A DNA stretch of 62,267 nucleotides, counting the filler, from Sanchytrium tribonematis (Eukaryota), in NCBI GenBank assembly GCA_018985235.1. It is 5 parts of 5 records of this genome, joined end to end, with 100 filler letters (N's around TTAATTAATTAA, not from the genome) between each part and the next. Parts side by side here need not be neighbours in the genome. Positions count along the whole stretch, not along the records: positions 1 to 12,432 come from JADGIG010000218.1; 4 more parts are not named here. One strand, 5' to 3'. The position numbers and the translations under genes were made by a program. Within the stretch, counting starts at the first letter, position 1. Each line of letters opens with the position of its first letter. The notes under the pieces are model-generated. The model made no database searches. It was not told the origin of the DNA and saw only the letters and a program-made list of their open reading frames with translations. Of this stretch, positions 2,705 through 37,385 are shown piece by piece.

Positions 2705-3853
2705 ATGGATTCACAAATCTCTTCTGATGATTCCGAAAACTCATTAGAGTCATTTATGAATGATTTGTTAATGCTAGATACCGAATTTTCAAGTATATGT
2801 CCCAAATTTGTTCAACGTGAGAGACAATCAATCCCAAAATCCAATTGGTGGGAATTTGTTTATCCCAGATTACAACCAAGTGCCTACAAGAAAATCTATC
2901 GTATGAGAAAGGAAACAGTACAAAGATTAACCCAAGTATTGTATTCATTTACTAATAATTCAGATTTCAAATACAATACACGGTCCAAATTCCACAAAGC
3001 TATTTGTGTTTGTTTACGCTATCTCACTAGACACAAACGTCAGTTTGATCTACAATTCGATTATAATTGCTCAGGTGGATATATTAATATGTATTTCAAA
3101 GACGTGGTTTACTTAATTATAAATCATTTATCTGATCAAGTAATGAGTTGGCCAAATTTAGATGAGAGAAAACTTGCTAATGATATTTACAATGTATATA
3201 ATATTTCATGCTCTCTTGGTTGCCTGGATGGCACCTTTATTTATTGCAAAGGGTATGGAGAGACACCTGCCAACTATACGTGTCGCAAATTTGATTTTAG
3301 CATGAATGTGATACTTGTAAATGATCATAATTTATTAATTCGTCATTTTATTTCAAACAACGTAGGTGCCAAAGGTGATAATGAAATAATTGAGCAATCA
3401 GATTTAAGTAGATTAATTCCGAGTATATTGGCATTTAAACACAATGGCGACCATTATAATAATAGTATTGGCTTACTACGTATTTTATAGTTGCTGATAA
3501 AGGTTTAAATAATTCAAATTATATTATTACCCCATTCAGTGATAGAGGAAGAATTTTTTCAACTCAAAAGCGCGCATTCAATTATTGGTTGAATCAGTAT
3601 CGTGGCACTGCTGAAACTACGATTGGCAAGTTAAAACTGAGATTCCTAATACTGAACGAAGGATTAACTCGACATATGTGGGAACAGCAGATGAAAACAT
3701 TCGAGCTTGTATTTATCTTCACAATTTTAGCATTATTAATGGGGATTTGATAAATAGGGATGAGTTGGTGGACGTTGAGTCCCATGAATTACCATTTGAA
3801 TGTTGTTTTTCTAAAACAAATAATGAAGATGTTGGGAGTCAAACAGTGAATTG
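2705..3853 (+). pseudogene. PIF/Harbinger transposase (DDE_Tnp_4), frameshifted
   Basis: ORF 2705-3490 has GCLDGTFI and YTCRKFDFSMNV. Other frames downstream give YFIVADKG, FNYWLNQYRGTAETTIGKLKLRF and RACIYLHN, all Harbinger motifs. At least two frameshifts. Confidence 0.85.
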
Positions 3854-4365
3854 ATTGATGAAGATAGTGGATATAGAACAGCAAGAACAAAATTATATCA
3901 ATACTTTATTCAGATCAGTTTATTCGTTTCTTTAATAATTCGAATTTAATTAATTTGTTATGCATTGAATTCATTACTAATTCAATTGATGATGCTTTGG
4001 ATTTTTGGGGTTTGAAAATTTTTCCAAAGTAGTCTTATAATGTCTTGCTCTTTGTGTTGTGAACTGTTTATCCCCCTCCCAATTCATTTCTGCTTGATTG
4101 GGTAGGTAATGTCATCCACATTGAAAAAATTATTGGGCATGTCCACCCCTCGCTTATTCGAGTCTCGTCTGATGTCATTTTCTAATTGGTAACAATATTT
4201 TAAAGGTTATTGGTGTAACCATAGACGATAGTATCCGAGCTGACCGTCTGACCTGACTTTGAAAGAAGCATTTATTGATTAATTCACGGGGTTTATTGAT
4301 TTGCTGAGTCTCAACATGTCTTAATTTATAAGAAAGTAAAGATTTCATTTTCAATTCTCGTTTTT

Positions 4366-4680
4366 ATGATCCTGGTGGTACAAATTGTGCAATTGTCATA
4401 TTACACACGAAAAATGGGAGAGACAATTACCAAAAAAACAAAAAATCATCAATCAAAAAAAGTCACTTTCGTTAAGAATGCGGGAAATATTGATGCAGCA
4501 TTAAAAGAAGCTGCTGAGGAAGCGAAGCTACAAAAGCAAACAAAGAAACAAACTGAAGTTGCAAATAAAATCAATCAAAATGAAGAGAATGTGAGCAAAT
4601 TGCCCGACCAGATTGACGTAACAGATTGTAAACATGAAATTATACAATCTGCACCTGATAGGGCCATTTCAATTTATTAA
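4366..4680 (+). CDS. Hypothetical Lys/Gln-rich ORF, probably a TE fragment
   Basis: 104-aa ORF in a TE-rich region with no recognisable motif. Confidence 0.2.
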   Translation: MILVVQIVQLSYYTRKMGETITKKTKNHQSKKVTFVKNAGNIDAALKEAAEEAKLQKQTKKQTEVANKINQNEENVSKLPDQIDVTDCKHEIIQSAPDRAISIY

Positions 4681-5179
4681 AATCTATTATTGGTCGTTTA
4701 GCGGATGTTAGCCCAGAGAAACAGACAAACAAAGCCATTCGCCAAAAAAGAACAAATCTTATGTAAATTGTTACATGATTCACATTTTAGAATGCAACAC
4801 TTTAAACTATAAAGAAATGTATGCAGTTTAAAACAAAATTGTTGTAAAATGTGCTCAAAATGTCACGCTAAATCATATGGAATTAGATCCATTTTGAAGA
4901 AGTTAATAAAGAGATAGTGCACTTGCACTTTGTTAGTGAATTAGCCCCTGTTGAGGCTTAGATGAATGCCCTGATTGCAATCCAAAAATTAGATATGAAA
5001 TTTAAAAATTACAACTGCCTCTCGAAAAAGCTACATCACAAGAAATTAAACCAAAAGGACAATGTGTAAGAATGAAAATTAAAATTTGAAACCCCAAATC
5101 ACCAGATTATCAAAAATCTACTTTGTTCATTTTAATAGAATTGCATTGCACCAAATAAGATTAAATCCCAATCAAATAT

Positions 5180-5827
5180 TTTCAAACTTTATTAAAAAAG
5201 AACGTGCTGTTTTGAAATACATACTTGAATCCACTTAACAAAATAAATTTCACCATGACATGTATGCTGAGTGTAACAAATATTATCTTTCGCCGCAAAA
5301 GAGCTTCAACTAAAACAATTACGCCCCATTCCATTGGATTTAAATCAAATTTCAAACAGACTTCAAAGTAATAATTAAAACATTCCGCGTTGATTAACAA
5401 ATATCCAAATGATTTTGAGCATCACCTGTCAATTGATGCAGAAATAATTAAGCATAAATCATTTAATAATGCAAAGTAATTGATGGCGAAGAGAATATAC
5501 TAGCCAATATTGAAAAATTGGCTGTTAAGGGCTTTATGATACACTCAAATTTTGATTAAGGATTTAATAAAGAATCGGATTGCTAAAATCCTTGAAACTC
5601 ATGCTAGAAAAAGAAAAAAATTCAATAGCAAGTATGTAGATTTGAGCAATATCAATCCAACATCAAATAGATATGAAAGATTGTTTAGTCCGGTCCGACA
5701 TATATTTACCAGTGTTAGAAATCGTTTGTCTCCAATAATGCTGAAAAATGCTGTATTTTTAAAACACAATACTAGTTGTTGGGATGTTTCCATTTCGTTT
5801 AAATTTTTATCTCATTATATGTTTTGA
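5180..5827 (+). pseudogene. hAT transposase remnant (C-terminal dimerisation domain)
   Basis: ORF 5552-5827 contains PTSNRYERLFSPVRHIFTSVRNRLSPIMLKNAVFLK, matching the hAT PxTSxxxERxFS...RNRL motif. The upstream part is decayed. Confidence 0.7.
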
Positions 5828-5910
5828 TAAATCAGAAAGGAGGACACGGAGAACGGACATTGGTTTGTTGGTTTTTAAAAGGAAGCAATACCTAGAAATC
5901 AATAAATTAA

Positions 5911-6409
5911 ATGGTACTACTTCTTTCAATTGATATTGGTAAAGTCAATACAATTTTTGTAGTAATGGACGTTGACTTTAACGATTACTGCCTTATAAAA
6001 TATGTACAAACGGCGAGTATCGCTACAGTTAGTCATCCATCCTTTAATCACATGACCAATGTATTAGTTCAAATTCCTAATACTTATTCTTTAGAGAAAG
6101 TAATAATTGAAACACAAGTACAAGCAGTTAACAATGTTTCAAACCGAAACATGTTTCTAAACAACTGTATTGTATCGTTCTTATATGGTTATTTTAACAG
6201 CCAAGGTGTAACAAGTATCGATGTAACACCACAATCAAGATGTAAGTTTCTGAGAAAGAAGTTGCATTTGCCTCAAAAAAAGTACGCTCATACTTTAGCA
6301 AAAGAAGCATCGTTGATGTATTTGAATACAAGTGACCTTATTTGGGGAAAAGTTGGACGATTTAGCTGATGCTGTCGCACAAGGTATTTTGGCATTTACA
6401 ATTCAATAA
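5911..6409 (+). CDS. RuvC-fold Holliday junction resolvase, poxvirus A22 / Ydc2-Cce1-like (one frameshift near the C-terminus)
   Basis: Motifs LSIDIGKVN and VIIETQ are in ORF 5911-6369. The +1 frame from about 6350 reads KLDDLADAVAQGILAFTIQ* (stop 6407-6409), supplying the last catalytic acidic motif. Reconstructed length about 165 aa. Confidence 0.8.
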
Positions 6410-6416
6410 ATATTTA

Positions 6417-7925
6417 TTAAGAATTTAAATTGTTTCTACGCACAATTTCTTTCAATAATTTAGTAAACGGCATTGTGAATCCAACATATGCTGCTTTAAA
6501 GGAATTTAGGTCGGTGTATTGTTCCATTACTTTTCCAATTACATTCCAATTGCTATACTTCTTTTGATCACGTCGATTTGTACACGTACCCCATTCTTTC
6601 ATTGGAGTGAATATCCCTACCGCTGGATTCACATTAAACCAATAATCCCACAAATCATCAACTGATTTTGGTGGTTTGGGAACAACACGTGATGTAGTTG
6701 TTGCAGCAAATGAATTGAGATTGGTTTGTCTTGGCTGTAGAGAAGGCTGCAAAACTGTAGTCTTTGTTACAGTTTTTGTATTTATTGGTGGTGCAATAGA
6801 TTGACCAGGTACTACTTTAGTTTGTGTATTAGGATTGTCATGCTCTCGAAGTATTCGTGCAACTGATTCAGCTATTTCATTTGGATTAAATTGAGGCTGT
6901 GGTTGTCTATGCATTTGTTCAGCCGTTTTAAGTAAATTAGTTGGGTCTATATTATTTGAAATGTTTTCAGTAATTAGGTAGGTCGCCATTGTTTTAGCGT
7001 CCGACCATCTACACCATGCCATAAGTTGATTGAAATCAAATCGACGAGTTGGCGACAGAAACACTCTAAAATAAGCACCCCCACGACGGAAACTATGCAG
7101 TGAGACACCTCTTGCAATGTTGGCATTAGATTCCGTCACATCATCAATAATTTGTTTAATCTTTGCTTGAATGCCTTTGGCGCTGTGGTGTACATCAACA
7201 TTTCCATCTGTTTCAAAACGATAACAAGAAAATAAATAATCATTTCTTCTAAGATTAGTTCTCAATGATTGTAAATGTTGCCTGTAGATATTATAAAAGT
7301 CAACAACGTTTAAACAAGAAACACCTGGTTCATTGTAGAGGTGATATACTCGTGAACCATTATTTACATTGGCGTGTTTAAACCATCTTAGACGTACAGC
7401 TAAATATGGCTGATTGTCAGAGTCTCTACGTAGTTCAACATCATTCCATTTAAAATCTAATACTTCGTTGATTCGGAAGCAACCAATAAATGTCAATGAG
7501 AATAGAAATTGATAATAAGTCTTAATAAATGGATGCTGGGAATTTAAACTTGACATTAACTCATTTAATTCAAATGTTGTTATTGGATGGCTCTGTAATT
7601 CCTCGTCAATATTATTACTTCTTCTATATTTTTTAAGCCCACTAACATATTTCTTTGCCTTTTTATCCTTAGCCGGATTATTTGCCATATTCTCAAACAA
7701 ATGTACAAGTGCGCTCTTTGCTTGATCAACGGATCGGGCCTTTTGACCTCTTTCTGCTTCATGATGTAGAAAACTCACAACATGATCCACTAATACTGTA
7801 TGTTCTGGATTATCAGATAATGGATTAGCTTCTAAAAATCGCTTATATCCTTTTATATAGGACGCATAACTTGCATGTGTATTGTTTGAAAGATGTGAAT
7901 TAAGAATCTCAGTAATTGTAGGCAT
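6417..7925 (-). CDS. Crypton-type tyrosine recombinase with C-terminal GCR1_C-like domain
   Basis: Intact 502-aa ORF from ATG 7925. Catalytic set: R (GCFRINE), K (WFKH), HxxR (HSFRRGG), W (WCRW), Y (MATYL). The C-terminal PKSVDDLWDYWF..G..PMKEW resembles the GCR1_C domain of Crypton recombinases. Confidence 0.85.
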   Translation of the reverse strand: MPTITEILNSHLSNNTHASYASYIKGYKRFLEANPLSDNPEHTVLVDHVVSFLHHEAERGQKARSVDQAKSALVHLFENMANNPAKDKKAKKYVSGLKKYRRSNNIDEELQSHPITTFELNELMSSLNSQHPFIKTYYQFLFSLTFIGCFRINEVLDFKWNDVELRRDSDNQPYLAVRLRWFKHANVNNGSRVYHLYNEPGVSCLNVVDFYNIYRQHLQSLRTNLRRNDYLFSCYRFETDGNVDVHHSAKGIQAKIKQIIDDVTESNANIARGVSLHSFRRGGAYFRVFLSPTRRFDFNQLMAWCRWSDAKTMATYLITENISNNIDPTNLLKTAEQMHRQPQPQFNPNEIAESVARILREHDNPNTQTKVVPGQSIAPPINTKTVTKTTVLQPSLQPRQTNLNSFAATTTSRVVPKPPKSVDDLWDYWFNVNPAVGIFTPMKEWGTCTNRRDQKKYSNWNVIGKVMEQYTDLNSFKAAYVGFTMPFTKLLKEIVRRNNLNS

Positions 7926-8034
7926 TTTATTTGTTTTAACTTGGAGTTCTAGGTGGGAAAAATTATGCATTTTATGCCATAAATATGCAGCCAATGGACA
8001 TGTTATTTGACTAGATTGATTGGCTACTGTCAAA

Positions 8035-9138
8035 TTAGTGTCTTGATTGGCTTAAGATGTCCAAAAATGTCCCAATTGGTGTCTTGCTAATGTCCGTTTC
8101 ATTTATTATGTCATTTTCTAAATGGGTGATTTTCTGATTCAAATTGAGAATAGATTGTTGATTTTCCTTTGAAATGGCCATTTGATTCAATTGATTATGA
8201 GTCAAGGTGAATTGTTGGTTAAAAATATCAATTTCATTTAATATTTTTGAATTTGGAATTGGGAAATCATATTCATATGGGGAAATAATAGGAACACCGG
8301 TGAATTCTCTATTAAGCGGATTCTTGCTAAGTAATTGGCGTGTAAATTGACTCAAATCTTCATTCATTAAACAGTCTAAATCCAATGGAAATGGATTTGC
8401 AAAAATATCCAAATCTTTTAATTTTTGATTTGTGCCTAATAGCATGAGAGAAATAATGAATAATCCCACTTCAAAATAATCCGTGTATCTTCTATTAATT
8501 TGTGTCTTTTCTAGTGTCTTTGGATCATCATAAACAGACTCAATTTTGAATTCTAAATTGTGAAAAAATGCGGATTTTAAATCTAAAGCGAGACCATATG
8601 GCTGTGCTACATATAAATTACAATCATCATCTACTGTGAAATCAAGTGGTGTATTGCGATATAGATACACATTATAATTGTGGAATATTTTGACGATATT
8701 CATTAATTGGTAAATAATGTAATATTTGCAATGGAATGGGAAATCATTGCCATGTTTAGATAGAAATGTATTTAATTGATGTAAATTGCGATGATTGTCA
8801 AATACCAGTCTAAAATAGCCATCATAATTGCAATATCCGAGATATTTTGGAAAGAAATGAAATTCATCTAATTTGTCAATAATTTGTAAATGGTTGTATA
8901 TTTTTAATTCAACTGGGTCAAATTCATTTTGTGCAATGTGCATTCTGTGTTTAAATTTGTAAAATGATTCTTTAGGTGGATTTCTTTTAATAATATGATC
9001 TTTTGCAAATAATTCAACACTGACTGGTTCGTCATTGTATATTGCTTCAAATACATGACAGTGAGTCAATTCGGTTGATCCTCTGCCAAAAATGTAATCG
9101 CCTACTTGAACATGCTCTAAAAATGGCAATTCGGACAT
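8035..9138 (-). CDS. Protein kinase-like (probable pseudokinase) with C-terminal coiled coil
   Basis: Kinase-like layout (FGRGS loop, FPKYLGY, IIYQLMNIVKIFH, TDYFEVG, LLSKNPLNR) but no canonical VAIK, HRD or DFG motif. Confidence 0.55.
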   Translation of the reverse strand: MSELPFLEHVQVGDYIFGRGSTELTHCHVFEAIYNDEPVSVELFAKDHIIKRNPPKESFYKFKHRMHIAQNEFDPVELKIYNHLQIIDKLDEFHFFPKYLGYCNYDGYFRLVFDNHRNLHQLNTFLSKHGNDFPFHCKYYIIYQLMNIVKIFHNYNVYLYRNTPLDFTVDDDCNLYVAQPYGLALDLKSAFFHNLEFKIESVYDDPKTLEKTQINRRYTDYFEVGLFIISLMLLGTNQKLKDLDIFANPFPLDLDCLMNEDLSQFTRQLLSKNPLNREFTGVPIISPYEYDFPIPNSKILNEIDIFNQQFTLTHNQLNQMAISKENQQSILNLNQKITHLENDIINETDISKTPIGTFLDILSQSRH

Positions 9139-9184
9139 GTGCTCCGAGTTTACTCCGATTGAAATATGAACAAATTTGATTTAT

Positions 9185-9688
9185 TTAAATGCCGGATAAC
9201 AATATAGCACCCATAATAGATGTAGAAATAAATGATGCAGATGAAAATTGCTGATCAGCTGCATTTGGATCTGTTGGAGGAGCTGGTACTCCGGAATCTG
9301 CTGGTGCACCTGGTGGAGGAGGAATTCCCGCATCTGCTGGAGATACTGGTGGCCCTGCTGGTACACCTGATGGTGGTCCGGTTTGTGGTCCTGATGGAGG
9401 GGAAGGAAATCCTGCTGGTGGAGCTGGAAGATCTGTTGGACCTGAAGGAGCAGGCGGAAATACTGTTTGTCCTGATGTTGATGCAGGTAATCCAGCTGGT
9501 GAAGATGGATCTGATGGACCACCAGCACCTTGAGCACCTTGTAATGCAGCAGGTAATTGGGAAAGACCAGCAGCTATTTGACTTTGCATTTCTGGTGTCA
9601 ATTTTGCTTTAAGTTCAGCAGGTATCTGTGAGGTAATATCGGATGGACTTGGAGGAGTCTGTGCTAAAATGAGCGAAATGGACAACAT
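9185..9688 (-). CDS. Pro/Gly-rich secreted, probably GPI-anchored surface protein
   Basis: Hydrophobic N-terminus (MLSISLILA), low-complexity P/G/A/S body, and C-terminal SSA followed by a hydrophobic tail. Confidence 0.65.
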   Translation of the reverse strand: MLSISLILAQTPPSPSDITSQIPAELKAKLTPEMQSQIAAGLSQLPAALQGAQGAGGPSDPSSPAGLPASTSGQTVFPPAPSGPTDLPAPPAGFPSPPSGPQTGPPSGVPAGPPVSPADAGIPPPPGAPADSGVPAPPTDPNAADQQFSSASFISTSIMGAILLSGI

Positions 9689-9890
9689 AACACCATAAAT
9701 AGCGAGTATTCTTTTTAATACAATATTTGCAAGAAATTAACCATCTGATTGGTACGACAAGCTAATTGCGAATATGCAACCACTCCAATCACAAGGACTT
9801 GACTTCAACACCAAGTGAAAATGACTTGGTTTGCAAGGGTGTCAAACAAATAGTTGCAAAATCGGAGAATCTCCTCGTTACAAATTCTGC

Positions 9891-12195
9891 ATGGTACTAG
9901 AGACCATCATTATCACAAAAGCCATATGCATCGTTGGTAAGTTGCTCCCTATTCTACAGAATATCGAACAGACCTGTGACAATAATGATAAAGCAACCAA
10001 ATTGTGTAGGAGATTTAAGAGATTAAACTTTGTATTAAAGAAAATGGCATCCAAGACCTTTTCAGAGACCACCATGGATACTTTGCAACATCTTTTGAGT
10101 TTCTTAGGAACGGTGGATCTATTTCTCCAAGATTTTAAAGATTTCTCTTATATAAGAAGATTCTTGTTAAATGCGAATTACAACAAGAAAATGACCAATT
10201 TTGATTCCGAAATAGATAAAATCATTAGTGAGTTGATTGTATCATACATTTGTATGCAATACTATGGATTTGAAATCTGATACTGCCGACATTAAAGAGG
10301 ACACAGAACAAATTACAAATCATGTGGTTGAAATGAAGGAATATTTACAAACCATGATGTCTCAAATCGATATTTTGGAGAGCAATCATCAAAACACACC
10401 TCCAGTAGTTCAGCCAGTAGGTATATCAGATGCGCAAATGGCTGAAATTAGAGCCATGTTTGTAGAAATGGCAAATTTACAAAATCCACTAACTGCTGAG
10501 AATTTGGAAGAAACGAGAGAAATTGTGATTCAATCCTCTAAATCATTCGATATTGATTATATTGATGGCATTGAATTGTTTAATAATGAAATATTGGGAA
10601 GTGGCTCATATGGCACTGTTTATTTAGGAGAATGGCATGGCATCAAAGTAGCCATTAAACAAATAACTCACTTTTCATTTAATAATCCATCCTCATTTAC
10701 AGTCAAATCAGATGCATTTGAGAAGAACAAGTCCGTTTTACGAGAAGTGAAAGCATTTGAAAAATTAAACAAATCTCCATTTATTTGTAGTTTCTACGGC
10801 GTGACATCCATTGATGGTAAATTAGGGCTTGTTACGGAATATCTAGACAACAATTCATTGTATCATTGGCTCTATACGGATGGTAAATCACTCACAGATC
10901 CACAAATCAATAAAATTCGACTCGGGATTGCCCGTGGTCTAACTTACATGCATTCCCATGGAATTGCCCATAATGATATTAAATCTAATAATATCATGTT
11001 GGATAGTCAATTGATGCCTCGTATTATTGATTTTGGAATGGTTAAAATGAACAATTCAACCATGTCATTTCATGGCAAATCCAAATCAGTAGGGACAGAT
11101 CATTGGAGAGCACCAGAGTATTGGGATGTCTCTACTGAATCATTCCAACTGCGTGATCAATTTCCATTTGCGGGAGATGTTTTCTCCTTTGCCATTGTTT
11201 TGGGTGAAATGGCAACATGTCAAATCCCATGGGATCAGCGTAGTGAATGGGATATTGAGCGTGCTATTTCCAAGGGAATGCGTCCATATACTTCAGATCA
11301 AATCAAATTTTCTCCTTTATTCGAAATTATTGATAAAGCATGGCAGCAACATCCAAAAGACAGATATTCTATGGAAGACTTGCTCAAGAAATTAGAATCT
11401 CTAGGCAGTTCGGCCAACTTTGTCATAAAACATAATTGGGAATATTTTGCAGAATTGACAAACCCCGCCCGTATAGATAACATTTTTGGCAATGAACTAC
11501 TCAAATCATTCAAGGAATCCATTCAAACTGTGAATCACTCATTGTTCCAATCGTACTTGTTAAAATTAGTGAAAATTGTGAAGTTATATGATATAAAATC
11601 CTATATTGAATCATTAAAACCATTAAATGATAAAATGATTAAATTGAAAACACGTGAAACAGATTTATTTATACTTAATATCATGGCATTTCTCAAAATT
11701 GGAATTGAAAAAGACAACAAGGAGATATTTAATGATTTTGTGAATTCTGACCATGAATTATCTAGTTATTTTATTGGATATTGCTATTCAAATGGACTTG
11801 GGGTGGCTGAAAATGATTTTAAAGCATTTCAATATTTCAATAAAGCATCAGAATTGGGAATACCAGCTGCTCATTATTATTTGGGAATCAGCTATTTATA
11901 TGGAAAAGGGTGTGCAGTAGATCATGAAATGGGATTAAAATATTATCAAATGGCTGGAGAATCACATTTTGGAGAAGGATATTCTGCAATCGGATATCTT
12001 TATAGAAATGGGAATATTGTGGAACAAAATGAAAAAAAAGCATTGCATTATGATGAATTGGCTAAACCATATAGCTATGATGAAGAGACGGGCGATGCAT
12101 CATTAAAACTGATACTGTCTAGAATATCTCCTGAAGTAAAGAAAGAGGTTTTAGAAAAATATATGTTGATGCAACAAAATAATAAATCAAAATAA
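9891..12195 (+). CDS. MLKL-like N-terminal helical domain + TKL protein kinase + Sel1 repeats (split across two ORFs)
   Basis: The N-terminal ORF from ATG 9891 resembles an MLKL/HeLo-like four-helix bundle (NNDKATKLCRRFKRL..IRRFLLN). ORF 10237-12195 has GSGSYG, VAIK, HNDIKSNN, DFG, WRAPE and Sel1 repeats (IGYCYSNGLGV, LGISYLYGKGC). The two are joined by a +1 shift or by a candidate GTGAGT..AAG intron at 10228-10297. Confidence 0.8.
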
Positions 12196-12432: not shown

Positions 12433-12532
12433 NNNNNNNNNNNNNNNNNNNNNNNNNNNNNNNNNNNNNNNNNNNNTTAATTAATTAANNNNNNNNNNNN
12501 NNNNNNNNNNNNNNNNNNNNNNNNNNNNNNNN
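12433..12532. other. Artificial contig-joining linker
   Basis: N44-TTAATTAATTAA-N44, which places stops in all six frames. Confidence 0.98.
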
Positions 12533-12586: not shown

Positions 12587-13228
12587 ATGGAAGAGCAATC
12601 TGACAACATTGAGGAAATAGTAGATTTCATTACTCCTAAGACGTTTGTAGATCCTTCATTGTTACTAAGTTTAGCATACCTATATAAATTGCAATCGAAA
12701 TTCCAGCTTTCAAGAGTATTTTTTGAAGAAATATTAAAACAATTGATAACGCGTCCAACAATTGGTATTCCAGAATATGAAATTGAAAAGGTAGGAATTT
12801 ATTTCACAGATAGATGGGAGCTCAGTGGCTCAGAAATGAGCCATGTAGTGGTTCAGCTCATTCAATTTTCCTTTTTAAACCTGGCGGACATTTACATTTC
12901 TGCTGAAAATTATGATTTAGCTCAACATTATTTAGATTCTGTCGAAGCTCTTGACGACGATTATTCGACGGAGTCAGAAAACTGTTTGCCTGTTGCATTT
13001 CATATTTTATCGTATGATGTCAAAACTAATAAGGATTTTAAACACTTTGTACTTGGCAATGCTACAAAACTTAAAGGCAAATGTTTATTCTGTGAAGGCG
13101 ATTATATTGGTGCAATATCTTTATATGAAAAAGCTTTTGAGTGGATACCAAATGATAAAGTGATTCATGCTTTGTATGATGATTCCTTAAAAAAGTTGAA
13201 GGAAAGCCCACCCATTTTTAGCGAATAA
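12587..13228 (+). CDS. TPR-containing protein (probably 5'-truncated)
   Basis: TPR-like helices (LNLADIYISAENYDLAQHY; KGKCLFCEGDYIGAISLYEKA). Lies at the contig start. Confidence 0.6.
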   Translation: MEEQSDNIEEIVDFITPKTFVDPSLLLSLAYLYKLQSKFQLSRVFFEEILKQLITRPTIGIPEYEIEKVGIYFTDRWELSGSEMSHVVVQLIQFSFLNLADIYISAENYDLAQHYLDSVEALDDDYSTESENCLPVAFHILSYDVKTNKDFKHFVLGNATKLKGKCLFCEGDYIGAISLYEKAFEWIPNDKVIHALYDDSLKKLKESPPIFSE

Positions 13229-13241
13229 ATATTTTTCAAAA

Positions 13242-14429
13242 ATGTCAGAGATTTTTTCAAATCTAGAGATAAGAATCCATGAAGCCACAAACTACTTGGA
13301 AGCCTGTCAGTCATTTTTATCAGATAATAGCTTTGAGCAATGGCAAACTATTTTAAATTTATTTGCCTCTTCAAAACTGAAGATTAAGGAAAAATTAGAT
13401 AGTGACAGCAATTTTAAAAAACAAATTAATCTGGTTGAAAGAGAATTGAATAGCTTTATTAACAGGCTCATAAGTATCAAGCATCAGAAGATATGGACAA
13501 AAGCAAAAAAATTGGAGAATGTTGAACAGGCAGTGACCAAGATAAACACAGAATTTCAAAATTTTCTACTTTTGTTGGGGAATGAAATATCTGATACAGA
13601 AGATTTTTTTCTTGAAGCAATACAAGCAGATTTGCTTGGAAATGTCGACAGATGTAGATCGCTGCTTGAAAACTCTTTTCGAGCTGGAAACAAATGGGCC
13701 GGACTTAAGCTTGCTCAAATGTGCCAAAACCTGGATAACGCCGAGTTTTATCTGAGAGAAATAATAGACCCCAGGGCTCTTTATGCTATGGGAAACCTTA
13801 AGTTAAGCAAAGGTCTGATTGACGAGGCTGTTGCATACTGGACGAAAAGTAGCCAAGAACTTGGCAAAACTTCAAATTACTACGAAAAATTAGCATTAGA
13901 CGTCAATTTAAAATTAATTCAGTATGGCAATATGAATTCAGACTTGATTTTGACTACCTTGAATGATAATATACAGAAATTTCATGCTGAATCTATTAAT
14001 TATCTTGGATATTTATACTACAATGGGGGGCTTGTTGTGAAAGACCTTAATCAATCCTTTAAACTGTTCAGAAAGGCAGCAGAGTTGGGTCATAGCGACT
14101 CTTACAACAATTTGGGAATTTGCTTTGAAAAAGGGCACGGGACAGAAATTTCCATCGAAAAAGCCAAAGAAGCCTATTTTGCTATTGCGGAATCACATGG
14201 TGAAGCCTGTTCAAATCTCGGATTCCTCCTTTACAAAGAAGGAAAGTTTAGGGAATCTTTACATTATTTAAGTCGTGGATCATTTCTCGGTTCTACAACA
14301 GCGGAGACTCTTTTAATAAAGGTTCTGACCTCAATTGCGATGGACAAAACCAAACTTGACGAATTAACACTGCCATTCAAAAACTTGCAAATAACCCGTA
14401 GCTCTGAAAACAAGGTGATCGCTCCATAA
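13242..14429 (+). CDS. Sel1-like repeat protein
   Basis: NYLGYLYYNGGLVVKDLNQSFKLFRKAAELG and NNLGICFEKGHGT repeats. Confidence 0.8.
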   Translation: MSEIFSNLEIRIHEATNYLEACQSFLSDNSFEQWQTILNLFASSKLKIKEKLDSDSNFKKQINLVERELNSFINRLISIKHQKIWTKAKKLENVEQAVTKINTEFQNFLLLLGNEISDTEDFFLEAIQADLLGNVDRCRSLLENSFRAGNKWAGLKLAQMCQNLDNAEFYLREIIDPRALYAMGNLKLSKGLIDEAVAYWTKSSQELGKTSNYYEKLALDVNLKLIQYGNMNSDLILTTLNDNIQKFHAESINYLGYLYYNGGLVVKDLNQSFKLFRKAAELGHSDSYNNLGICFEKGHGTEISIEKAKEAYFAIAESHGEACSNLGFLLYKEGKFRESLHYLSRGSFLGSTTAETLLIKVLTSIAMDKTKLDELTLPFKNLQITRSSENKVIAP

Positions 14430-24920: not shown

Positions 24921-25020
24921 NNNNNNNNNNNNNNNNNNNNNNNNNNNNNNNNNNNNNNNNNNNNTTAATTAATTAANNNNNNNNNNNNNNNNNNNNNNNN
25001 NNNNNNNNNNNNNNNNNNNN
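24921..25020. other. Artificial contig-joining linker
   Basis: N44-TTAATTAATTAA-N44. Confidence 0.98.
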
Positions 25021-26005
25021 CCATTAAACTTATTGTAGTAGTGGTACAACCATTGGTCCATCATCAGCTGCGATTTTATTGAGAGGAGGTTGGACACTTG
25101 GTGGAAGTCACAGATTATCATGAAGCGGGGGATCGATATGTCGGTAGATATTTAAGTGGGTTGCCATACAATTCACATCAATTTGCTTTGCTTCCGCCTG
25201 AATTTAGTGCAAATACACCAGCTAATTTATAAAGAAGAATTATTGAAATCGCATTTCCAAACTTGCCACCAACCCCATTTCAAATTGCAAAATTTTTTCT
25301 TGCATCACCTGTTCATCACTATAACTACTTAAGTGCTCAGATGAGTCCAACACATTTACTTCGTCACACCCCTTTATTTAGAGATTCAAATAGAATCCAG
25401 CAATTGTCTCAATTTGTATCTGTGTCCAATTTCGAATCTGATACTTTAACAGCAAGTGGTACTCCACCATATGCCAATATTTTATTTCAATTACTACACG
25501 TTCAACAATCTATGGAAAAAATAGTGCCAGCTATTGAAGAAAATTCCACTAAAATTGTAAACAATGTTGTTCAAGAATTTGAAAATCGATCAGTCAAATT
25601 AAATACAGTAACTTATACTGGATTAGATGAGCTTATCATGAGTGGCGTACAATCAGTTTTAGATCGAAATGGATTTGGTGTAAGGCAAGATGAAACGTCG
25701 CAATTTGAGGGAAATTTACAAGAGAGTGAGAATTCGAATTTATTTTCATATTATTCACACCCTGGTCGTACAGGCATGTTTTTTCTGACATATAACTATG
25801 CCATTCCATGCACTACAACCCCCAATGTCATCCATCTTTTCTTTTTTGGCAGTTCTACAGATCGAATACGACCACTTTCCAGATTACGCCAAATGACTTT
25901 AGTGATTCCAATGCTCGTAAACGATTAGCTGATTTAAAGTATTTAGTAAATGCAGTGATGGGACAGAACTCCTTAAACACGCCCACACTTGATGAAATCC
26001 ATTTA
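25021..26005 (+). pseudogene. CryptonS-like tyrosine recombinase remnant (3' half)
   Basis: CSSGTTIGPSSAAILLRGGWTLGG..DYHEAGDRYVGRYLSGLP..LPPEF and RKRLADLK parallel the protein at 29526-31433. Frameshifted. Confidence 0.85.
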
Positions 26006-26009
26006 AAAT

Positions 26010-27160
26010 GGAATTATCGTCAAACAAAGGTACGACTTCCGCCTAAGATTTACTCAGAAATCCAAGAAGCCTTACTCCTGGAATGGAAACCGCCAAGCAA
26101 TGACATCAAATATACTAGCTCATTCTTCAAGATGGAACAACGAAATCGTCAGTCCATCCAAAAATTCTATCATGCTTTAGTCGAAAGTCACAAAAAGTGC
26201 AATTTCGATAAAGACTACAAGCCATGCAAGACATTTTTTCCGAAAATTTTGCTCTTCTTTGAAAGATAAAAGAATTGTAAGATCAATTGCAACGATATAC
26301 AAGAGACAGAAAGAGATGCATATGAACTAGCAATTAAAATTGAATCAGATTTTGAACCCTCTCATGATCGTAAGAAAAACGAGAACATCGAAGTGAAAAA
26401 CCATTCAAACCATTCAAGAAGTTTAAGCATGATTCAAAGAATGAAAAAGAAGATTTTAAGAAACCATTTGGAAAACCAAAATTTTCCTTTTCCTAAGAAA
26501 CCGGGATATTATAGTACCTGAATATAAGGACTCAAACGATACTCCTGAGCATTTGAATATAAATCCGGAGCTAGCTGATGATTAACGTACAGCTCTGTTA
26601 CGAATAGCAAGCAAATTCTTATCCACTAATTACTTTATTGTGCTAGACCTTAAATCTGGATATTGGCAAATAAAAGTGGAAGAGGAAAACAAAGAAAAGA
26701 CAGCTTTCGTGACACCATTTGAACTTTATCAATTTACGGTATTGCCTTTTGGATTGTCTGAAGCTGCAGCTACTTTTCAACGACTTATTGACTCAATTTT
26801 TGCAGACGACATTGGTAAAATTATGTTGGTCTATCTAGATGACCTACTAATTTATGCTTTGTCTTACATTGAGTGCTAAGAAATGATATTTGGGAATGAC
26901 AGAAGTAGATTTATTAGGATTTAAAGTATCAAGTAATGGAATCCAACCAGCAAAAATTGAGGCAATAATAGTGTTCAAACCTCCTAAACAATTTGTAGCA
27001 TTACGAGCTTCTTTAGATGCTTTATCCACAAATATTCCAAACTCAGTCATTGGCTAAGAAAAATGCGGACTCCACATTCTCAATATGATCTCCCATTTTA
27101 TGTTTATACAGAAGCTTCGGAATTGTTGCGGTATTAGTTCAGCAAGGCAGACCAGTTTGG
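26010..27160 (+). mobile_element. Deleted Ty3/Gypsy retrotransposon remnant (gag, RT and RNase H fragments)
   Basis: Gag LLLEWKPPSNDIKYT is homologous to 35392-35826. RT reads LDLKSGYWQI..TAFVTP..LPFGL..YLDD. Confidence 0.88.
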
Positions 27161-27217
27161 TTGGTTTTGTAGTAACAGCTGGTCAGCAATGGGGAATTTT
27201 TCAATCAATTTTGCAGT

Positions 27218-27667
27218 TTGGGATGGCCCAAGCAGTTTGAGCTATCTGATTTAAGTTCTCTAGCTGATACATATGATAATTCTCCTCTTTTACTGAATAT
27301 GGATAACAAATGTAACCCCTTGAATTCAATTTACGTACTACGCACTAAAAAATCACTTCAAAAGAAAATTAATTTGAATCAGCACCGCAGCAAGTCATCT
27401 GATATCCTGTTGCCAAAAGATCTGGTCTAATTTTATTCATATGATCCATTTTCGGATAAATGCTGCTCTGTAATGGTGTTTTATTCCCAAGTGGTGATTT
27501 TTGTTTCAATCAAACTGTGCTCCAGACTTAGAGAACTCAAGGAACTCAGATGGAAAGATATTGTATTTAATACTACTTCAAATCCCGATTCTCCGACTGA
27601 AACATTTGGTCATATTCAAGTGTTACCAAATCTTCCAAACAATCACAAAAGAAACGCCGACTTTTAA
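27218..27667 (+). pseudogene. Tyrosine recombinase (Crypton-like) N-terminal fragment
   Basis: IKLCSRLRELKELRWKDI matches the first catalytic R box of YRs (compare GCFRINEVLDFKWNDV). An upstream KCNP segment is also present. Confidence 0.5.
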
Positions 27668-27982
27668 AGCAGTTTGAACATTGAATATAAAGACAGCAAC
27701 GCAAGGTAGCCAAAAATAGATTAGTTGTATATAAGGATTTTTTTGTACTCAGTTATGCAGTGGGATAAACGCGGAATCATCTCTATGTCCTCTATTGAGG
27801 TTTCTGGTAATTCCGGAGATTCCAGATCATCATCGGAATCCTCGCTTTCTAATTCAATTTTTTATAGAAAAATATATCCGTCATATGATCAATCAGAATC
27901 GGATTATTGCGCCTACAATCTATTTTATTTATAACTTATGTTGCTCTGTCAATGCAAATGAACTTGTTAATCCAGAAAATTA

Positions 27983-28486
27983 GTGAAAAGATTTTTAAAG
28001 TTCTTTTTGTTGGGAAATAGAAATGAAGCATTAAATGTGCCAAATTTGGTTTCTGTGAGAAATCATTTTAAATTAGCAAGTGAATGCGATTTATATCATA
28101 TTCCACTTGCTCATATGATTGAGAAATATTTAGAGGCTCATGATCAATTTGTAAATGGTGTTTTTAAAGAAAACTCTAATGAATATCAAATTCAATTGGC
28201 TGCTAAAGTAACTTATTTATTGCAATGGGAACCATTAAATTATGTCCATTATCAAATGGCTAGTAATGCACTCTATTCTAAATATAATCAATCATTTCCA
28301 ACTCATCAAGACACCCAATATTTGCTAGATTTAAATGCATTTGCAGTTTTTAATTATCGGCAAAACATTAAAGATCAGATTGATCAAATTCGTCAATCAC
28401 AAATGGTGAGAATGATCAATTTGTCTATTACATATTCAACCAACCCATTTCAGAGAAAGAAGCCAATTGACAACCCATGCATTTAG
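27983..28486 (+). CDS. Hypothetical protein (decayed; upstream frames from about 27784 probably belong to it)
   Basis: 167-aa ORF with no recognisable motif, lying between YR remnants. Confidence 0.3.
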   Translation: MKRFLKFFLLGNRNEALNVPNLVSVRNHFKLASECDLYHIPLAHMIEKYLEAHDQFVNGVFKENSNEYQIQLAAKVTYLLQWEPLNYVHYQMASNALYSKYNQSFPTHQDTQYLLDLNAFAVFNYRQNIKDQIDQIRQSQMVRMINLSITYSTNPFQRKKPIDNPCI

Positions 28487-29332
28487 AAGAAGTGGTGCAA
28501 CTATTCTGGCATTTATATGCCAAATGGGCGTCATTGGTGACTTTCCCTGTGTAGAAATTACTGTGAATGGACACAAATGTCCGAGAGTGAAATGATTACA
28601 AGGTACCTGGTTCACACTGCTAAATCTTTTTAATCTTATTTTAATGTCTTGTGAGTATTTCAAGTGGCTATTATTTCTTGAATGCAGTTTAAATAAGAAT
28701 ATTGAATGTGATTTGGTTTTTCTATGGTTGTATGTTCTTGAAGTAACAGTTCTGGGATGATTGCAATGATTTATACACTTGAAAGTAAATTGGCAGCGGA
28801 TATTTGGGTCGCTTCCGTATAATTAAATCTTCAATTTAAATATCGTATTGTTGGCATTAATATTAACATTAGACTTGCCATTGATGGTCTGTAGTTGCTC
28901 TTCCACTATTATAACGTTTACATTTTGAATAAATTCTCTTAATTGTTTTAAAGTTGCCAAATTAGATGAGACTTGGGAAAGAAAACTGTCGGAAATCTAA
29001 TAAGTAAACTATATTATCTACTTTAAACAGAAATAATTAGGTATTCTGTCGTCCACAGTCAACAACTGCCAGTAACATTTGTTTTGAGGGTGAAATCTCA
29101 AGTTGCACAAAGGGGAGAAGTGACAGCAAGAGAAAGGATGATGCTATTGCAGGCAAAAATGCCGCAAAAAAGGAGATGAATCATGAAGTTAATGATTCTC
29201 GATGTGAGAACAAAAACCACTCATTACATCATAGCAAATAAGATATATTTTTTTTTTGAAACGACTTTTCTTCCCCTATAAATTTTATGCAAGTTGGAGG
29301 GATGTCAATAACAATATCGAAAGTGATTTGAC

Positions 29333-31661
29333 CCATAGTTGATGTTGATTATTGATTGGTTCCCCTTGTTTTAAAGCCGAAATATTATCGGGTCTCAGAT
29401 CCTTTGTAATACTTGAGATTACATAAATAGAAGCAAATCCCAGAAGAGAACGAAGACAGATTATGAATAAACACTTTATTAAATCTCCCTCAAACGCAAT
29501 AACTCATTCCCGCTGGGTGATGATGTTAATAACATTTATGGGGTTTCGGGATTTCTGAGTATTCTCCAATGATGTGTTTAATAATGAATTTCAAATCACT
29601 CAATCTTTTGCGATGATTCTTGTTACTGAAATCTTGTGGAACAACTGACTTAAGTGGAGGAATATGGATTCTAGAGTCACCATGAAAGAATAAATGAATT
29701 AAATTTGTAATATTTGTGTTTGGAATTTCATAATTCTCAGGAAGAAGATTAAGACGTCCATTATGAGTGTATATCAGTGCTGATGGCTCAACAACATCCT
29801 CCACTACACTATTATCTCTGATGGGATTCATTAAACCAGCATCATTCAACACGCGAACTAAAACATCATTAATACGTGTATCAAGTCCCTCATATGTAAC
29901 AGTATTAAAATTCACAGCTCTATCTTCCATTTCATGCACTACACCATTAATTGTATTTTGAGTGGCTGTAGCTACTGCTGGTACAATCTCATCTACAGAT
30001 TGTTTTATACCTTTTAATTCATAAATAATTGCTGCATGTGGTGGTACACCTGTTGCTGTGAGTCTATCAGATGCAAATAAATGAATATTAACATGTTGTT
30101 GCAACATTTGAATACGGATATGGTCCCTGAATAAAGGGTTTTGAAAAACTAGATGGTGTGGATTAAAATTGGCTACGATATAATTGTAGTGATAAACAAG
30201 ATTTGCAAGTAGAAACTCAGCCATGTGGAGGTGTACTGGATTTAAATTAATAAATGTCATTTCAATTGATTCACGAAGCAACTCAACAGGTGTGTTGCGA
30301 CTGAATTCAGGGGGTAAAGTCGCAAAATGTTCATTGTGAGAAGGCAAACCACAAAGAAACCTACCAACATAACGATCACCAGCTTCTTGATAATCGGTGT
30401 AAGTATCCTGAGTTCCACCAAGTAACCAACCCCCTCTCAATTTAATTGCTGTTTCACTTGGGCCAACTGTAGATCCACTTGAACAGTATGTTTTAGCACC
30501 TTTTCTAAAAGAGTGAGATCCTATATCAACTGCAGCAAATTCAGAATTTAGTGGCTTTAATCTATCAATTTCGGTCAATAAAATATTAGAAAATCTATTG
30601 TATTGACTAGCCCCTTGAAATAGTTGTGTTTGTCCAGGTACAATAGAAAAGGAAGCAAGGTAAACAGCAAGAGATAATATGGGACACATTGATGGTGCCA
30701 AAGGGTTACAATATACATGTCTAGGATATCGTATATTCTCACCAGTTTGGTCCGTTTTAGAATGGCAAAAAAACACTTGTAGTGCATCATCTTGCCAATG
30801 CATATGATTGAAACAAAGTCGTACAGCATTTGCACTTCTACACATCAAATTCCAGCACAACAATGAAAAGCAGTGTGCAAAGATGGAATCAGAAGTGCCT
30901 TTTATTTGCCAAGAATTAAGTAAAATTTTAAGTGCTTGAATGTCCAATGGATCCTTTCCTTCTATTAATCTGTTGTTCGTACTAACGGCTTGCAAGGCAT
31001 TTGTTCTTTTAAAACCAGTAAATAGATTGTGCATGGTTTCATAAAATTCTTGATCGATAGTAATTTTATGAATTTTGAACAAGAAACCTAGTGCCGCTTT
31101 ATGGGTATTATATGCACTTTTACCCAACATCTGATCGCCATTTCCCTGTTTTTTTAATTTAGAAAGCCAGAGAATAAATAAATCAGGTGTAATGCTCCGA
31201 AACTCAATTGGAGGTCCATTTCCGATCACCGAAATCCAGTCCTTAATTTTACGCTTAAAACCCAAGTTACGATCTGAAAAATTAAAATAAAATTGTTCTC
31301 TATTATCTTCCGGTCCATCATATGCATCTACTTGTTCTAGAATATCTGATTGCAGATGTCTAAACAAATTTGGGCTAATTAAATTTGGAAATCGAAATGA
31401 TAAAAAAGAAATAAATCTTGTCATGGAACCCAAATAGCTTGATTGTGCTGATGGGCTGTATATATTTCGTAAATATTCGTTTGTTTGGTCGTCAGAGAGA
31501 ACTGCTGTCTGTTGGGGTTATTTTGTGACATCCCGCACCCGCTATATTATAAGGGCATTTCGGGATGTGTAAATGGTTACCAAATTCCCATTTAACTTCC
31601 CTATGGTGCCGATAGTCGTAGTTTTTACTGCTTTGAGTCTTTTTATTTGACTTCCATAGTT
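29333..31661 (-). mobile_element. CryptonS-like transposon bounded by CCATAGTT direct repeats
   Basis: CCATAGTT at 29333-29340 and 31654-31661 (AACTATGG on the coding strand) flanks the YR ORF. Confidence 0.6.
29526..31433 (-). CDS. CryptonS-type tyrosine recombinase
   Basis: 635 aa with WNLMCRS (R), SKTDQTG (K), RHVYCNP..CPILSL, GSHSFRKG (HxxR), LRGGW (W), QDTY (Y) and AGDRYVGR. Confidence 0.88.
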   Translation of the reverse strand: MGSMTRFISFLSFRFPNLISPNLFRHLQSDILEQVDAYDGPEDNREQFYFNFSDRNLGFKRKIKDWISVIGNGPPIEFRSITPDLFILWLSKLKKQGNGDQMLGKSAYNTHKAALGFLFKIHKITIDQEFYETMHNLFTGFKRTNALQAVSTNNRLIEGKDPLDIQALKILLNSWQIKGTSDSIFAHCFSLLCWNLMCRSANAVRLCFNHMHWQDDALQVFFCHSKTDQTGENIRYPRHVYCNPLAPSMCPILSLAVYLASFSIVPGQTQLFQGASQYNRFSNILLTEIDRLKPLNSEFAAVDIGSHSFRKGAKTYCSSGSTVGPSETAIKLRGGWLLGGTQDTYTDYQEAGDRYVGRFLCGLPSHNEHFATLPPEFSRNTPVELLRESIEMTFINLNPVHLHMAEFLLANLVYHYNYIVANFNPHHLVFQNPLFRDHIRIQMLQQHVNIHLFASDRLTATGVPPHAAIIYELKGIKQSVDEIVPAVATATQNTINGVVHEMEDRAVNFNTVTYEGLDTRINDVLVRVLNDAGLMNPIRDNSVVEDVVEPSALIYTHNGRLNLLPENYEIPNTNITNLIHLFFHGDSRIHIPPLKSVVPQDFSNKNHRKRLSDLKFIIKHIIGEYSEIPKPHKCY

Positions 31662-35094: not shown

Positions 35095-37385
35095 AATGAT
35101 TTAAAATCAACTGAAACAGGAGAGAAACAAAGTACTTCCGATGGAGACAATGGTACTCCAACACCTCAACAACAGGATGAAACACTTATTTCCTTAAGTG
35201 AGAAATATGATGGTGAAGAATTTGAGGAAATCCCAACTAGTGCACCTCCATCTAACTCAGAAGATGTGATTAATTTTGGAGAGTTGATGCAACAATTTGC
35301 AGACTAACAAAAGAAAGTCAATGCAATTTGTCAACCGGGACCTGGAATTAGACCTACACCTCCTTGGGTTCAAAATGAAAACAAAGAACTGGTGAAAGAG
35401 TTCAAGTACAACATTCCAGCATTCGACGAAAAGAAAGAAAAAGTTGATGAATGGTTATCCAAAATGGAGGATAACAAAGAATTACTTGGTTGGTCTGAAG
35501 AGTGCTTATACAAAGAAGTCAAATTAAGATTGCCTTCCTCCATTTTTAAACAAATTCAAAATTGTGAAAAGAACTATGAAAGTTTAAAAGCAACTTTGTT
35601 ATTGGAGCTAAAACCACCTAGTAATGATATTAAGTATACGCATGAATTTTTTAGATTGTCACAAAGACAAAATCAAACTATTCAGCAATATGTCAAAGTT
35701 TTGAAAGAATTTCATCACAAATGCAACTTTGACACTGATGATCCAAATGAATGTATTATTTTCTTTCGGAAATTTTGCTCTTCATTATTGGATTCAAGAA
35801 TTATGAGACAAATTATAGCTGAATGATGTCAAAACTTTCGTGAAGCCTATGAATTGGCTATTAATTTGGAATCCGAAGCAACGAACGACTACAAGTCAGT
35901 TCATATGAAAAAGAAGAGCTTCAGTGGTTCTAATCAACCTTTCAAACAATCGGATCATAAAGAAGAATTTAAGAAACCTTATTACCAAGGTAAATCTTCT
36001 AAAGGCAAAAAACCATTCTTCAAAAAGCCAGAAATTAAAAAAGTAAATGGTTCAAACTATTTCGACAATTCTTGCGGAAATTCGGCCCGTCAACACAATT
36101 TGTAATATATTGATGGATACAGGAGCTAGCCATTGCTTTATGAGTGAAGCAACAGCGTTTGATTTGCAGTTAAAAATTAAGCCAGCTAAGCTCGATGAGA
36201 CAGAATCAGCAAATGGATCAAAATTGACCATTATTGGTTTTGCTCAGTGTAGTGTTTATTATTCGCAAACACCTGTCAAGCACAATTTTTACATTATTCG
36301 TAATCTAGCATCTAATATCATAATTGGGAGAGATAGCATGAGATTACAGAATATGAATATTGACTTTGAACGAAACTTTATCTGGATCAATGGTATGCCA
36401 ATTCGCATGAATCGTAGTCCAGATGAGGTAGCAGTTCAAACAGCAATGTTAAATTATGTCAGTACTTCTAAAAATAGCAAATTAAAAAAGTTTCAACTTC
36501 AGGAAATCCTGAAAGATATTACAAACGATTACGATTTGCATAGTGAAGATATTGTACTTCCAAATGAAAAAGACGACAACTCACCCAGAGACTTAGTGAT
36601 AAACGATAAACTAACAGAAGAACAGCAACAAGAACTTCGAAACGTAGCAAACCAGTTTCTGCCATGTTTTGGTTCTGAGAATAAGACTCGAGTTAGAACA
36701 AGACATCACATTAGAACGGATTGCGAACCTGTCAGAGCAGGAATCATAAAAGAGGAATGCGAAAAGATGCTAAAGGAAGACAGGATTGAACATTCCTGTT
36801 TTGACTGGCGCTCATCTGTAGTCTTAATTCCGAAGCCTGACGGATCAGTTCGTTTTTGTGTAAACTATAAACTATTTAACAAACAAACGAATTTCGACGC
36901 ATATCCTTTACCAAACTTACAATCTCTATTATCAAAACTTCAATGAGCAAAATTTTTCATTTTACTGGATCTTAAATCCGGATACTGGCAAATTAATTTA
37001 GCCGAGAAAGATAAAGAAAAAACAGCATTTGTTACACCATTTGGACTATTTCAATTTAAAGTTGTACCATTTGGGTTGTCAACCGCTCCAGCCACTTTTC
37101 AAAGACTCAAGAATGAGATCTTTGACAAAATGATGGGCAAAGATCTATTAATTTATTTAGATGATCTATTAATTTATGCTTCGACTTTCGAGGAATTAAT
37201 TGAAAAATTTGTCAGAGTTCTAAGAAAGTTGGAATTGCATGGTCTAACTCTCAGTGACAAGAAATGCCACTTGGGAATGACAAAAATTAATTTTCTGGGT
37301 TTCCAAATTTCCGCAGAAGGCATTCAAGCTTGTGAGGAAAAGATTAAAGCCGTAAAAGACCTTTCTGCGCCCAGCACAGTCACAC

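Follow-up and report, generated by a model that had tools for sequence, protein, structure and literature searches.

What completes the strand exchange begun by a tyrosine recombinase (YR) in a eukaryotic transposon? YRs swap two pairs of strands in turn through a Holliday junction, and the question is raised by a locus of Sanchytrium tribonematis (GenBank assembly GCA_018985235.1) where a YR gene and a gene for an A22/RuvC-type Holliday-junction resolvase converge tail-to-tail. The window, that is the whole stretch of DNA analyzed, is 62,267 nt long, filler included, and joins five parts of five records end to end; the two genes lie in the first part (JADGIG010000218.1). They form a unit of ~2.3 kb that is very probably a two-gene mobile unit. 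On balance, we favor its identification as a decaying copy of a Crypton-type DNA transposon, with an intact Cre-like YR and a frameshifted resolvase cargo, the resolvase likely cutting the four-way junctions left by the YR.

A Two-Gene Unit Encoding a Cre-Like Recombinase

No gene other than these two was found in 5807–8111, and an open reading frame (ORF) survey of the unit detected no polymerase, helicase, or Rep. Both element proteins are present in EukProt. The unit shows several properties of Cryptons in the broad sense: its YR has the R-H-R-Y catalytic residues, it encodes no reverse transcriptase, it is repeated with different flanks (one further copy, 6168–8110), and it has no terminal inverted repeats, the 10-bp inverted repeat of the unit being subterminal. 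The coordinates of its features are collected in table 1.

The YR reading frame is open over 6417–7970 on the minus strand without internal stop and encodes 517 aa from the first ATG or 502 aa from M16. The intact 502-aa YR with an R-K-HxxR-W-Y signature reported in the initial annotation was recovered with all its motifs (R166, K198, H292-x-x-R295, W322, and Y331); R166, H292, R295, W322, and Y331 follow the order of Cre. Weak matches were obtained with integrase N-terminal domains and XerC/D models. Structure prediction, which had been suggested as a check, returned a Cre-like fold (mean pLDDT 78, 27-row alignment) whose best structural matches are Cre and Tre (E = 2e-10), with a Z-score of 16.0 and an rmsd of 4.4 over 283 aligned residues for Cre. 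Residues 430–517 form a confidently predicted helical domain conserved in relatives. This tail had been described as GCR1_C-like, a label not borne out by Pfam: no GCR1_C match was found in the YR, in 36 relatives (3 + 33), or in six tail fragments.

We identified 348 relatives of the YR at E ≤ 0.001 among 1.84 billion representative proteins. Nine of the 23 that were looked up carry an organism name, namely five Aphanomyces species, two Sanchytrium, one Lobosporangium, and one Favolaschia; none of the nine is from Phytophthora, and the distribution of the family is patchy. In a quick, midpoint-rooted tree of 51 rows with the HxxR motif and at least 230 aa, the YR groups with Aphanomyces proteins (support 87–98) and Sanchytrium proteins, apart from a fungal group characterized by HCFRRGGAQ. 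This kinship points to YR exchange between oomycetes and zoosporic fungi. No YR relative with context was found in the viral contigs of IMG/VR, in prokaryote genomes, or in one viral record. Metagenome contigs gave three matches, all by chance in bacterial DNA, and a profile search by shared words returned only four proteins, already known. No resolvase domain was fused to any fetched YR relative (Pfam on 33).

A Frameshifted A22-Type Resolvase

The second gene had been described as encoding a RuvC-fold protein of ~165 aa. Its motifs SIDIG (D8), IIETQ (E67), and KLDDLADA are indeed present, but they are not contained in a single ORF: a stop is reached after 152 aa, and KLDDLADA sits in the +1 frame. 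All four acidic catalytic residues are therefore encoded in the window copy but divided between two frames. Read with an X at the break, the protein passes the cut-off of the Pfam domain Pox_A22 (PF04848; 27.4 bits for a cut-off of 22, E = 4e-6, model positions 3–136 of 143), while the 152-aa frame alone scores 17.1 bits. It also matches the RuvC-like PHROG 159 (E = 2e-4), and in Atlas the neighbors of the 152-aa part are A22 clusters of giant viruses (0.92, with 182 features in common). A single-sequence fold was unusable (pLDDT 35). No other relative of the resolvase was recovered among eight candidates, nor any in IMG/VR; two weak phage matches (E = 3–6) and one PDB match (E = 0.8) were obtained.

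As an in-frame stop immediately precedes the ATG, the resolvase has no unspliced N-terminal extension, in line with the earlier remark that there is no room for a SAP domain or a targeting peptide. Pox_A22 (PF04848) is a family separate from Ydc2 (PF09159; PMC3985635), and the resolvase had no match with the Ydc2 model at E ≤ 10. Ydc2/Cce1 is a single-copy host gene whose product, a mitochondrial resolvase, has a Ydc2 domain with an N-terminal extension. The initial annotation had allowed for the resolvase being this host orthologue; this did not prove to be the case, the window containing two homologues, both beside YRs. At 165–176 aa and with no TnpB-type Pfam match, the protein is not of the Fanzor/TnpB type either. 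The YR and resolvase stops (6417–6419 and 6407–6409) are 7 nt apart around AATAAA, exactly as first reported, inside a palindrome.

A Second Copy and the Ends of the Element

We found a second copy in the contigs of one DNA run sharing 65% of sampled words with the window; no RNA run was listed, and a further run, which covered only 240 nt of the YR end, was set aside. A contig of 1,964 nt spans 6178–8110 with 28 substitutions. One base is missing at 7934, and position 6346 is used twice with 31 letters in between, a net gain of 32 bases. By hand count, the 32 extra bases give a single frame of 176 codons through the two parts of the resolvase; they also fill a gap seen in comparison with giant-virus A22 proteins. 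An intron or a programmed frameshift at 6346–6349 is ruled out by this longer allele; in addition, 17 frame-restoring GT/GC..AG introns were tried, all of which delete 46–253 nt that align with A22 proteins.

The loose ends of the second copy are at 6168 and 8110, and it therefore has other neighbors. In addition to the YR, which has a nonsense codon at residue 234, it contains the 3' half of the resolvase, the 5' half being missing. Four acidic residues in one protein are encoded neither by the window copy, with its two frames, nor by the second copy, whose frame is open and which misses the first two. Subject to the phase caveat given below, one copy would combine a live YR with a broken resolvase and the other a dead YR with half a resolvase. 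Six contigs of the same run match the flanks in the window (3500–6207 and 8222–10351) with 0 differences. Contig depths are near 53 and 64 at the second-copy junctions, 33.5 at the right junction of the window, and 58–72 in the flanks.

The right end was mapped by comparing three sequences. Agreement between the second copy and the window extends to 8110, whereas that between the window and a depth-16 relative of the neighboring kinase-like gene begins at 8106, with at least 255 different letters before. This three-way crossover at 8106–8110 (TTATG) is the pattern of an insertion site. The depth-16 relative has no element end at 8106 and is not joined to the left flank. By eye, its letters before 8106 resemble the left flank and the right end of the element, so that a diverged sister element may be present in this contig. 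The cores match loosely: TTATC or TATGT on the left, TTATGT on the right in the window, and TTATGA in the second copy. The left copy of the 21-bp direct repeat is probably the host half of the target site.

The pair had been placed between the arms of a 10-bp inverted repeat. This repeat exists (5852–5861/8089–8098) but is subterminal and not a marker of the ends; on the right, its arm stops 8 nt short of the mapped boundary and falls within the last codons of the neighboring ORF. Perfect 10-mers were shared by 0.7%, 5%, and 18% of pairs of random windows of 60, 150, and 300 nt, respectively. The repeat is one pair of a set of five GGACA motifs close to the ends of the element and internal to them; these are plausibly binding sites, the motif having been picked after the fact. 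The last 23 codons of the neighboring ORF and its stop come from the right end of the element (8035–8105), so that the insertion left the frame of this ORF open. The initial annotation called this neighbor a pseudokinase and the sequence at 5540–5827 a hAT relic; the sole Pfam match of the former is PIP49_C (E = 0.055) and the latter has no Pfam match, both labels resting on reading by eye.

Table 1. Features of the two YR–resolvase pairs and of their surroundings (positions in the window)
Feature	Position	Strand	Remarks
Left copy of degenerate 21-bp direct repeat	5796–5816	+	17/21 identical to 8095–8115; sole other match of at least 17/21 on either strand of the window
Left end zone (inferred)	5807–5822	+	Two candidate crossover cores: TTATC (5807–5811) or TATGT (5818–5822)
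Two GGACA motifs	5842–5861	+	Second forms the left arm of the inverted repeat of 10 bp; subterminal, putative binding sites for protein
A22/RuvC-type Holliday-junction resolvase	5911–6409	+	Frameshifted at 6346–6349; frame of 152 aa, without the last two of the acidic catalytic residues
Left point of divergence between the second copy and the window	6168	.	Inside the resolvase gene; loose end; depth ~53 by arithmetic
Frameshift site	6346–6349	+	32 more bases in the other copy; 10–14-residue gap here versus giant-virus A22 proteins
14-bp perfect palindrome	6405–6418	.	Holds both stop regions; AATAAA on each strand; one of 4 such in the window
Cre-like YR, intact	6417–7925	−	502 aa from M16; binding domain at the N terminus, followed by the catalytic domain, a disordered linker, and a helical domain at the C terminus (430–517)
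Neighboring kinase-like ORF, 367 aa	8035–9138	−	Likely insertion target; last 23 codons and stop inside the element end; kinase kinship weak
Three GGACA motifs facing those of the left end	8058–8098	−	Include the right arm (8089–8098) of the 10-bp inverted repeat; candidate sites
Right end, TTATG(T) core	8106–8111	+	Crossover of three sequences: window, second copy, relative of the neighboring gene
Decayed YR of a sister lineage	27482–28633	+	Tail-to-tail with the resolvase relic; R motif ~27524, HxxRR ~28476, W..Y to 28615; ~500 extra bases inside; no tail
Decayed resolvase	28687–29078	−	Stops and frameshifts; aligned to residues 2–139 of the first resolvase, ~27% identical; D and E motifs kept
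Open 632-aa YR, presumably of another Crypton-like lineage	29526–31424	−	450 nt upstream of the resolvase relic, same strand; alternative partner

A Second, Decayed Pair in the Window

A tBLASTn search for recurrence of the pair had been recommended; within the window, it led to a second pair of YR and resolvase. With the first resolvase as a query, the best non-self match in the window is at 28912–28700 (27% identity, E = 0.002). A frameshift-tolerant alignment over 29078–28687, in which the D and E motifs coincide, scores 78; the second-highest score in the window is 49. This score was reached by none of 300 shuffles of the region and none of 60 shuffled queries. The relic is closer to the first resolvase (78) than to any of 71 giant-virus A22 proteins (best 55), a profile of which yields a faint match at 28826–28996 (E = 0.11). 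Pfam did not recognize the pieces of the relic, and a motif common to both resolvases had one match in viral contigs, by chance.

The YR relic, with its HAFRRSGA motif near 28476, scores best with proteins of the sister group (74, versus a maximum of 46 in 40 shuffles); with the first YR it scores 48, and shuffles reach 47. The extra bases inside it include a frame of 171 codons (27971–28486, +) with no Pfam match. The resolvase relic ends ~70 nt from the catalytic tyrosine of the YR relic, and both are without their C-terminal parts, which a single deletion across a tail-to-tail pair would explain. Whichever nearby YR is the partner of the relic (table 1), adjacency of a YR and a resolvase, as judged from these alignments, is found twice in the window, in families far apart in sequence. 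The two pairs are 21 kb apart in the window, separated by two of its joins (12433–12532 and 24921–25020), across which the order may not be genomic. The proposal of a two-gene mobile element stands on the second copy, which carries the YR and the 3' half of the resolvase, and on this distantly related pair at 27.5–29.1 kb; the ends and the tail had been misread.

The resolvase relic is also in tandem with the open 632-aa YR, which we take to be Crypton-like (29.5% to the family of the first YR by hhalign). Its motifs are CRSAN, HSFRKGA, and RGGW. A broken relative, 47% identical, is present at 25028–25972 (+), and two small remnants in 45186–45442. TATGG occurs at 31602, 178 nt before the ATG of the 632-aa YR, in a region where this motif is common. 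Decayed pieces of LTR retrotransposons were identified at 26000–27200 (+) and 35464–36946 (+), with gag-like, aspartic protease, and RVT_1 (E = 6e-17) sequences; the former directly adjoins the YR relic, whose 5' part it may have removed.

Comparison with Known Elements

We found no description of a Crypton with a Holliday-junction resolvase in the literature searched, whose scope excluded Repbase, most subscription journals, and bioRxiv supplements, where a description may exist; within it, the earlier remark that no described Crypton family was known with such cargo holds. The second genes described in Cryptons are a DDE transposase, a C48 peptidase, and an HTH protein (PMC3212892, PMC13465315), and Fanzor is a further cargo (PMC13565253). 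Cryptons are thought to excise as circles via short direct repeats (PMC3212892), and their transposition has been modeled, never demonstrated by experiment, according to a 2026 review (PMC13565253). Like the Cryptons of Kojima and Jurka (2011; PMC3212892), the unit relies on a YR as its sole recombinase, has no reverse transcriptase, belongs to the 2–3 kb size range, is present at low copy number, and has candidate short direct repeats at its ends and no true terminal inverted repeats. It differs from them by encoding a Holliday-junction resolvase, and not one of the DDE, C48, HTH, or Fanzor extras reported in PMC3212892, PMC13465315, and PMC13565253.

Most CryptonS families end in TATGG (PMC3212892, supplement 1). 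The unit shares with CryptonS, known from oomycetes and a diatom, the TATG of its core and a conserved C-terminal domain unrecognized as GCR1_C, and the nearest named relatives of its YR are oomycete proteins. Unlike in most CryptonS families, the fifth base of the core is T (window) or A (second copy) and not G. Fanzor-carrying Cryptons are similar in that a gene for a RuvC-fold nuclease lies inside a YR transposon. Fanzor and TnpB are long RNA-guided RuvC nucleases with a zinc finger. Whereas Fanzor is a long RNA-guided homologue of TnpB, the cargo here is a short A22-type resolvase, predicted to be structure specific. The resolvase has in common with those of poxviruses and giant viruses the D-E-D-D catalytic set, the order of the motifs, and a score above the Pox_A22 cut-off. 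Unlike them, it is encoded in a eukaryotic transposon; it is shorter than most of those sampled and weakly similar to all. Daidara Gypsy LTR retrotransposons, a name that our literature search did not confirm, have a RuvC-like gene, a DDE integrase, and no YR.

A Model with Two Enzymes and Its Alternatives

We propose that the YR would excise the unit as a circle by crossing over at short TATG-type cores, and that the circle would integrate at AT-rich targets loosely resembling its own ends. With imperfect core homology, the Cre-like enzyme would stall after the first strand exchange; the element-encoded resolvase would then cut the junction, and host ligase or repair would finish the reaction. 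This last step would be analogous to the role of replication at integron and CTX junctions. Integrons stop after one strand exchange and rely on replication to finish (PMC3458562). In the integration of integrons (PMC3458562) and of the CTX phage (PMC3442271), as in our working model, a YR exchanges one pair of strands and another process resolves the junction. These systems differ in being bacterial, in using single-stranded substrates, and in their resolution by replication and not by an element-encoded nuclease (PMC3458562, PMC3442271).

We infer that the resolvase serves transposition. It probably acts in the cycle of the element itself; that the YR-made junction in particular is its substrate we rate at slightly less than an even chance. 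More tentatively, eukaryotic transposons with Cre-like enzymes may constitute a two-enzyme class, in which the YR performs one strand exchange and a resolvase completes the reaction, freeing integration from exact core homology, the resolvase slot being filled repeatedly, in this window by A22/RuvC-type enzymes for two families.

Several observations weigh against this interpretation. To our knowledge, most described Cryptons move without a resolvase gene, as far as their mobility is known. All the evidence for the pairing comes from this genome. No whole copy is among those found: the resolvase of the window is frameshifted, and the other copy is without the 5' half of the resolvase and has a nonsense codon in its YR. 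Between the two copies, 26 YR codons have changed, nine silently and 17 not (pN/pS 0.51, p = 0.08), and these changes, taken at face value, show drift and not selection. The deletion form, without the 32 bases, is absent from the contigs listed for the run. This run may be the source of the assembly itself; its contigs merge copies and depth is not copy number, so that phase is unproven. Only the right core is mapped; the left end is deduced, with no second left end seen in the contigs of the run. When the 50-nt ends were compared as a whole, their similarity was not significant, 222 of 3,000 random pairs (~7%) scoring as high. As for the second pair, the resolvase relic is surrounded by clustered dead transposons and has a second YR at a distance of 450 nt, which makes its partner ambiguous, and its last motif was not recovered with confidence.

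The main competitor leaves the unit its resolvase and changes the function, which would be debranching or amplifying the excised circle, or steering the repair of the donor site to raise copy number. It draws on the same linkage evidence, the second copy and the second pair, and poxvirus A22 resolves replication concatemers. Fanzor, moreover, is a cargo of Cryptons for which an akin role has been proposed, restorative homing being discussed in PMC13565253. The unit encodes no polymerase, helicase, or Rep, and an A22-type enzyme of ~176 aa would have no room for RNA-guided targeting; we consider such a function unlikely. Less likely still is that the resolvase is a passenger without benefit, acquired in a single capture from a giant virus or from endogenous remnants of one. 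The families nearest to the resolvase are viral, every copy found is broken, and zoosporic fungi carry giant-virus insertions (PMC13533422). Nevertheless, two resolvases that are ~27% identical and adjoin the tails of two different YRs imply that such genes were retained for long or captured repeatedly, and neither is close to any of the 71 full-length A22 proteins sampled from giant viruses.

Fortuitous adjacency, in which a lone resolvase (host Ydc2/Cce1 or viral relic) next to a Crypton was copied once by segmental duplication, would fit a region rich in dead transposons and a single further copy that breaks off inside the resolvase. It is very improbable given that a second convergent pair exists, that the right break coincides with the point of divergence of the element-free relative of the neighboring gene, and that the resolvase has neither a match to the Ydc2 model nor an N-terminal extension. 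We give even less credit to a viral origin of the pair, as part of an endogenous large DNA virus or of a polinton-like virus with an integrase and A22, although both gene types occur in such viruses (PMC13236599). The flanks of 120 giant-virus A22 loci (up to 3 kb per side for 80 and less for 40) contained no YR of this profile, and no YR relative was present in IMG/VR contigs. The best viral fold matches of the YR are phage integrases, 17% identical, and no other viral gene was recognized by eye among the ORFs of the window.

Cre-like enzymes normally require identical spacers; integration at targets that match only loosely would be explained if a resolvase took part in the transposition of the element. 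A22-type resolvases, typical of large DNA viruses, would thereby be extended to transposons of the nucleus. With its two genes in 2.3 kb, a mapped right end, and an inferred left end, the unit represents a small system for testing Crypton transposition, and the two-enzyme class, if it exists, would give the first testable handle on this process.

Other Features of the Window

The window is AT-rich (~0.33 GC) and gene-dense. Its joins, at 12433–12532, 24921–25020, 37386–37485, and 49846–49945, appear as pairs of 44-N runs with spacings of 12,488, 12,465, and 12,460. A frameshifted DDE_Tnp_4 (Harbinger-like) transposase is encoded at 2705–3750 (+) and a split Tc1-like transposase at 47722–48795 (+). 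Contigs of low depth (11–18) from the same run differ by ~5% from the window at 4583–5011, 8137–8251, and 10352–10369, corresponding to a minor second genotype or to paralogous blocks. At 9891–12195 (+), an MLKL_N-like ORF (E = 0.008) overlaps an ORF with a kinase and Sel1 repeats; this MLKL-like architecture is probably split by an intron or a frameshift, and Sel1-repeat genes follow at 12587–14429.

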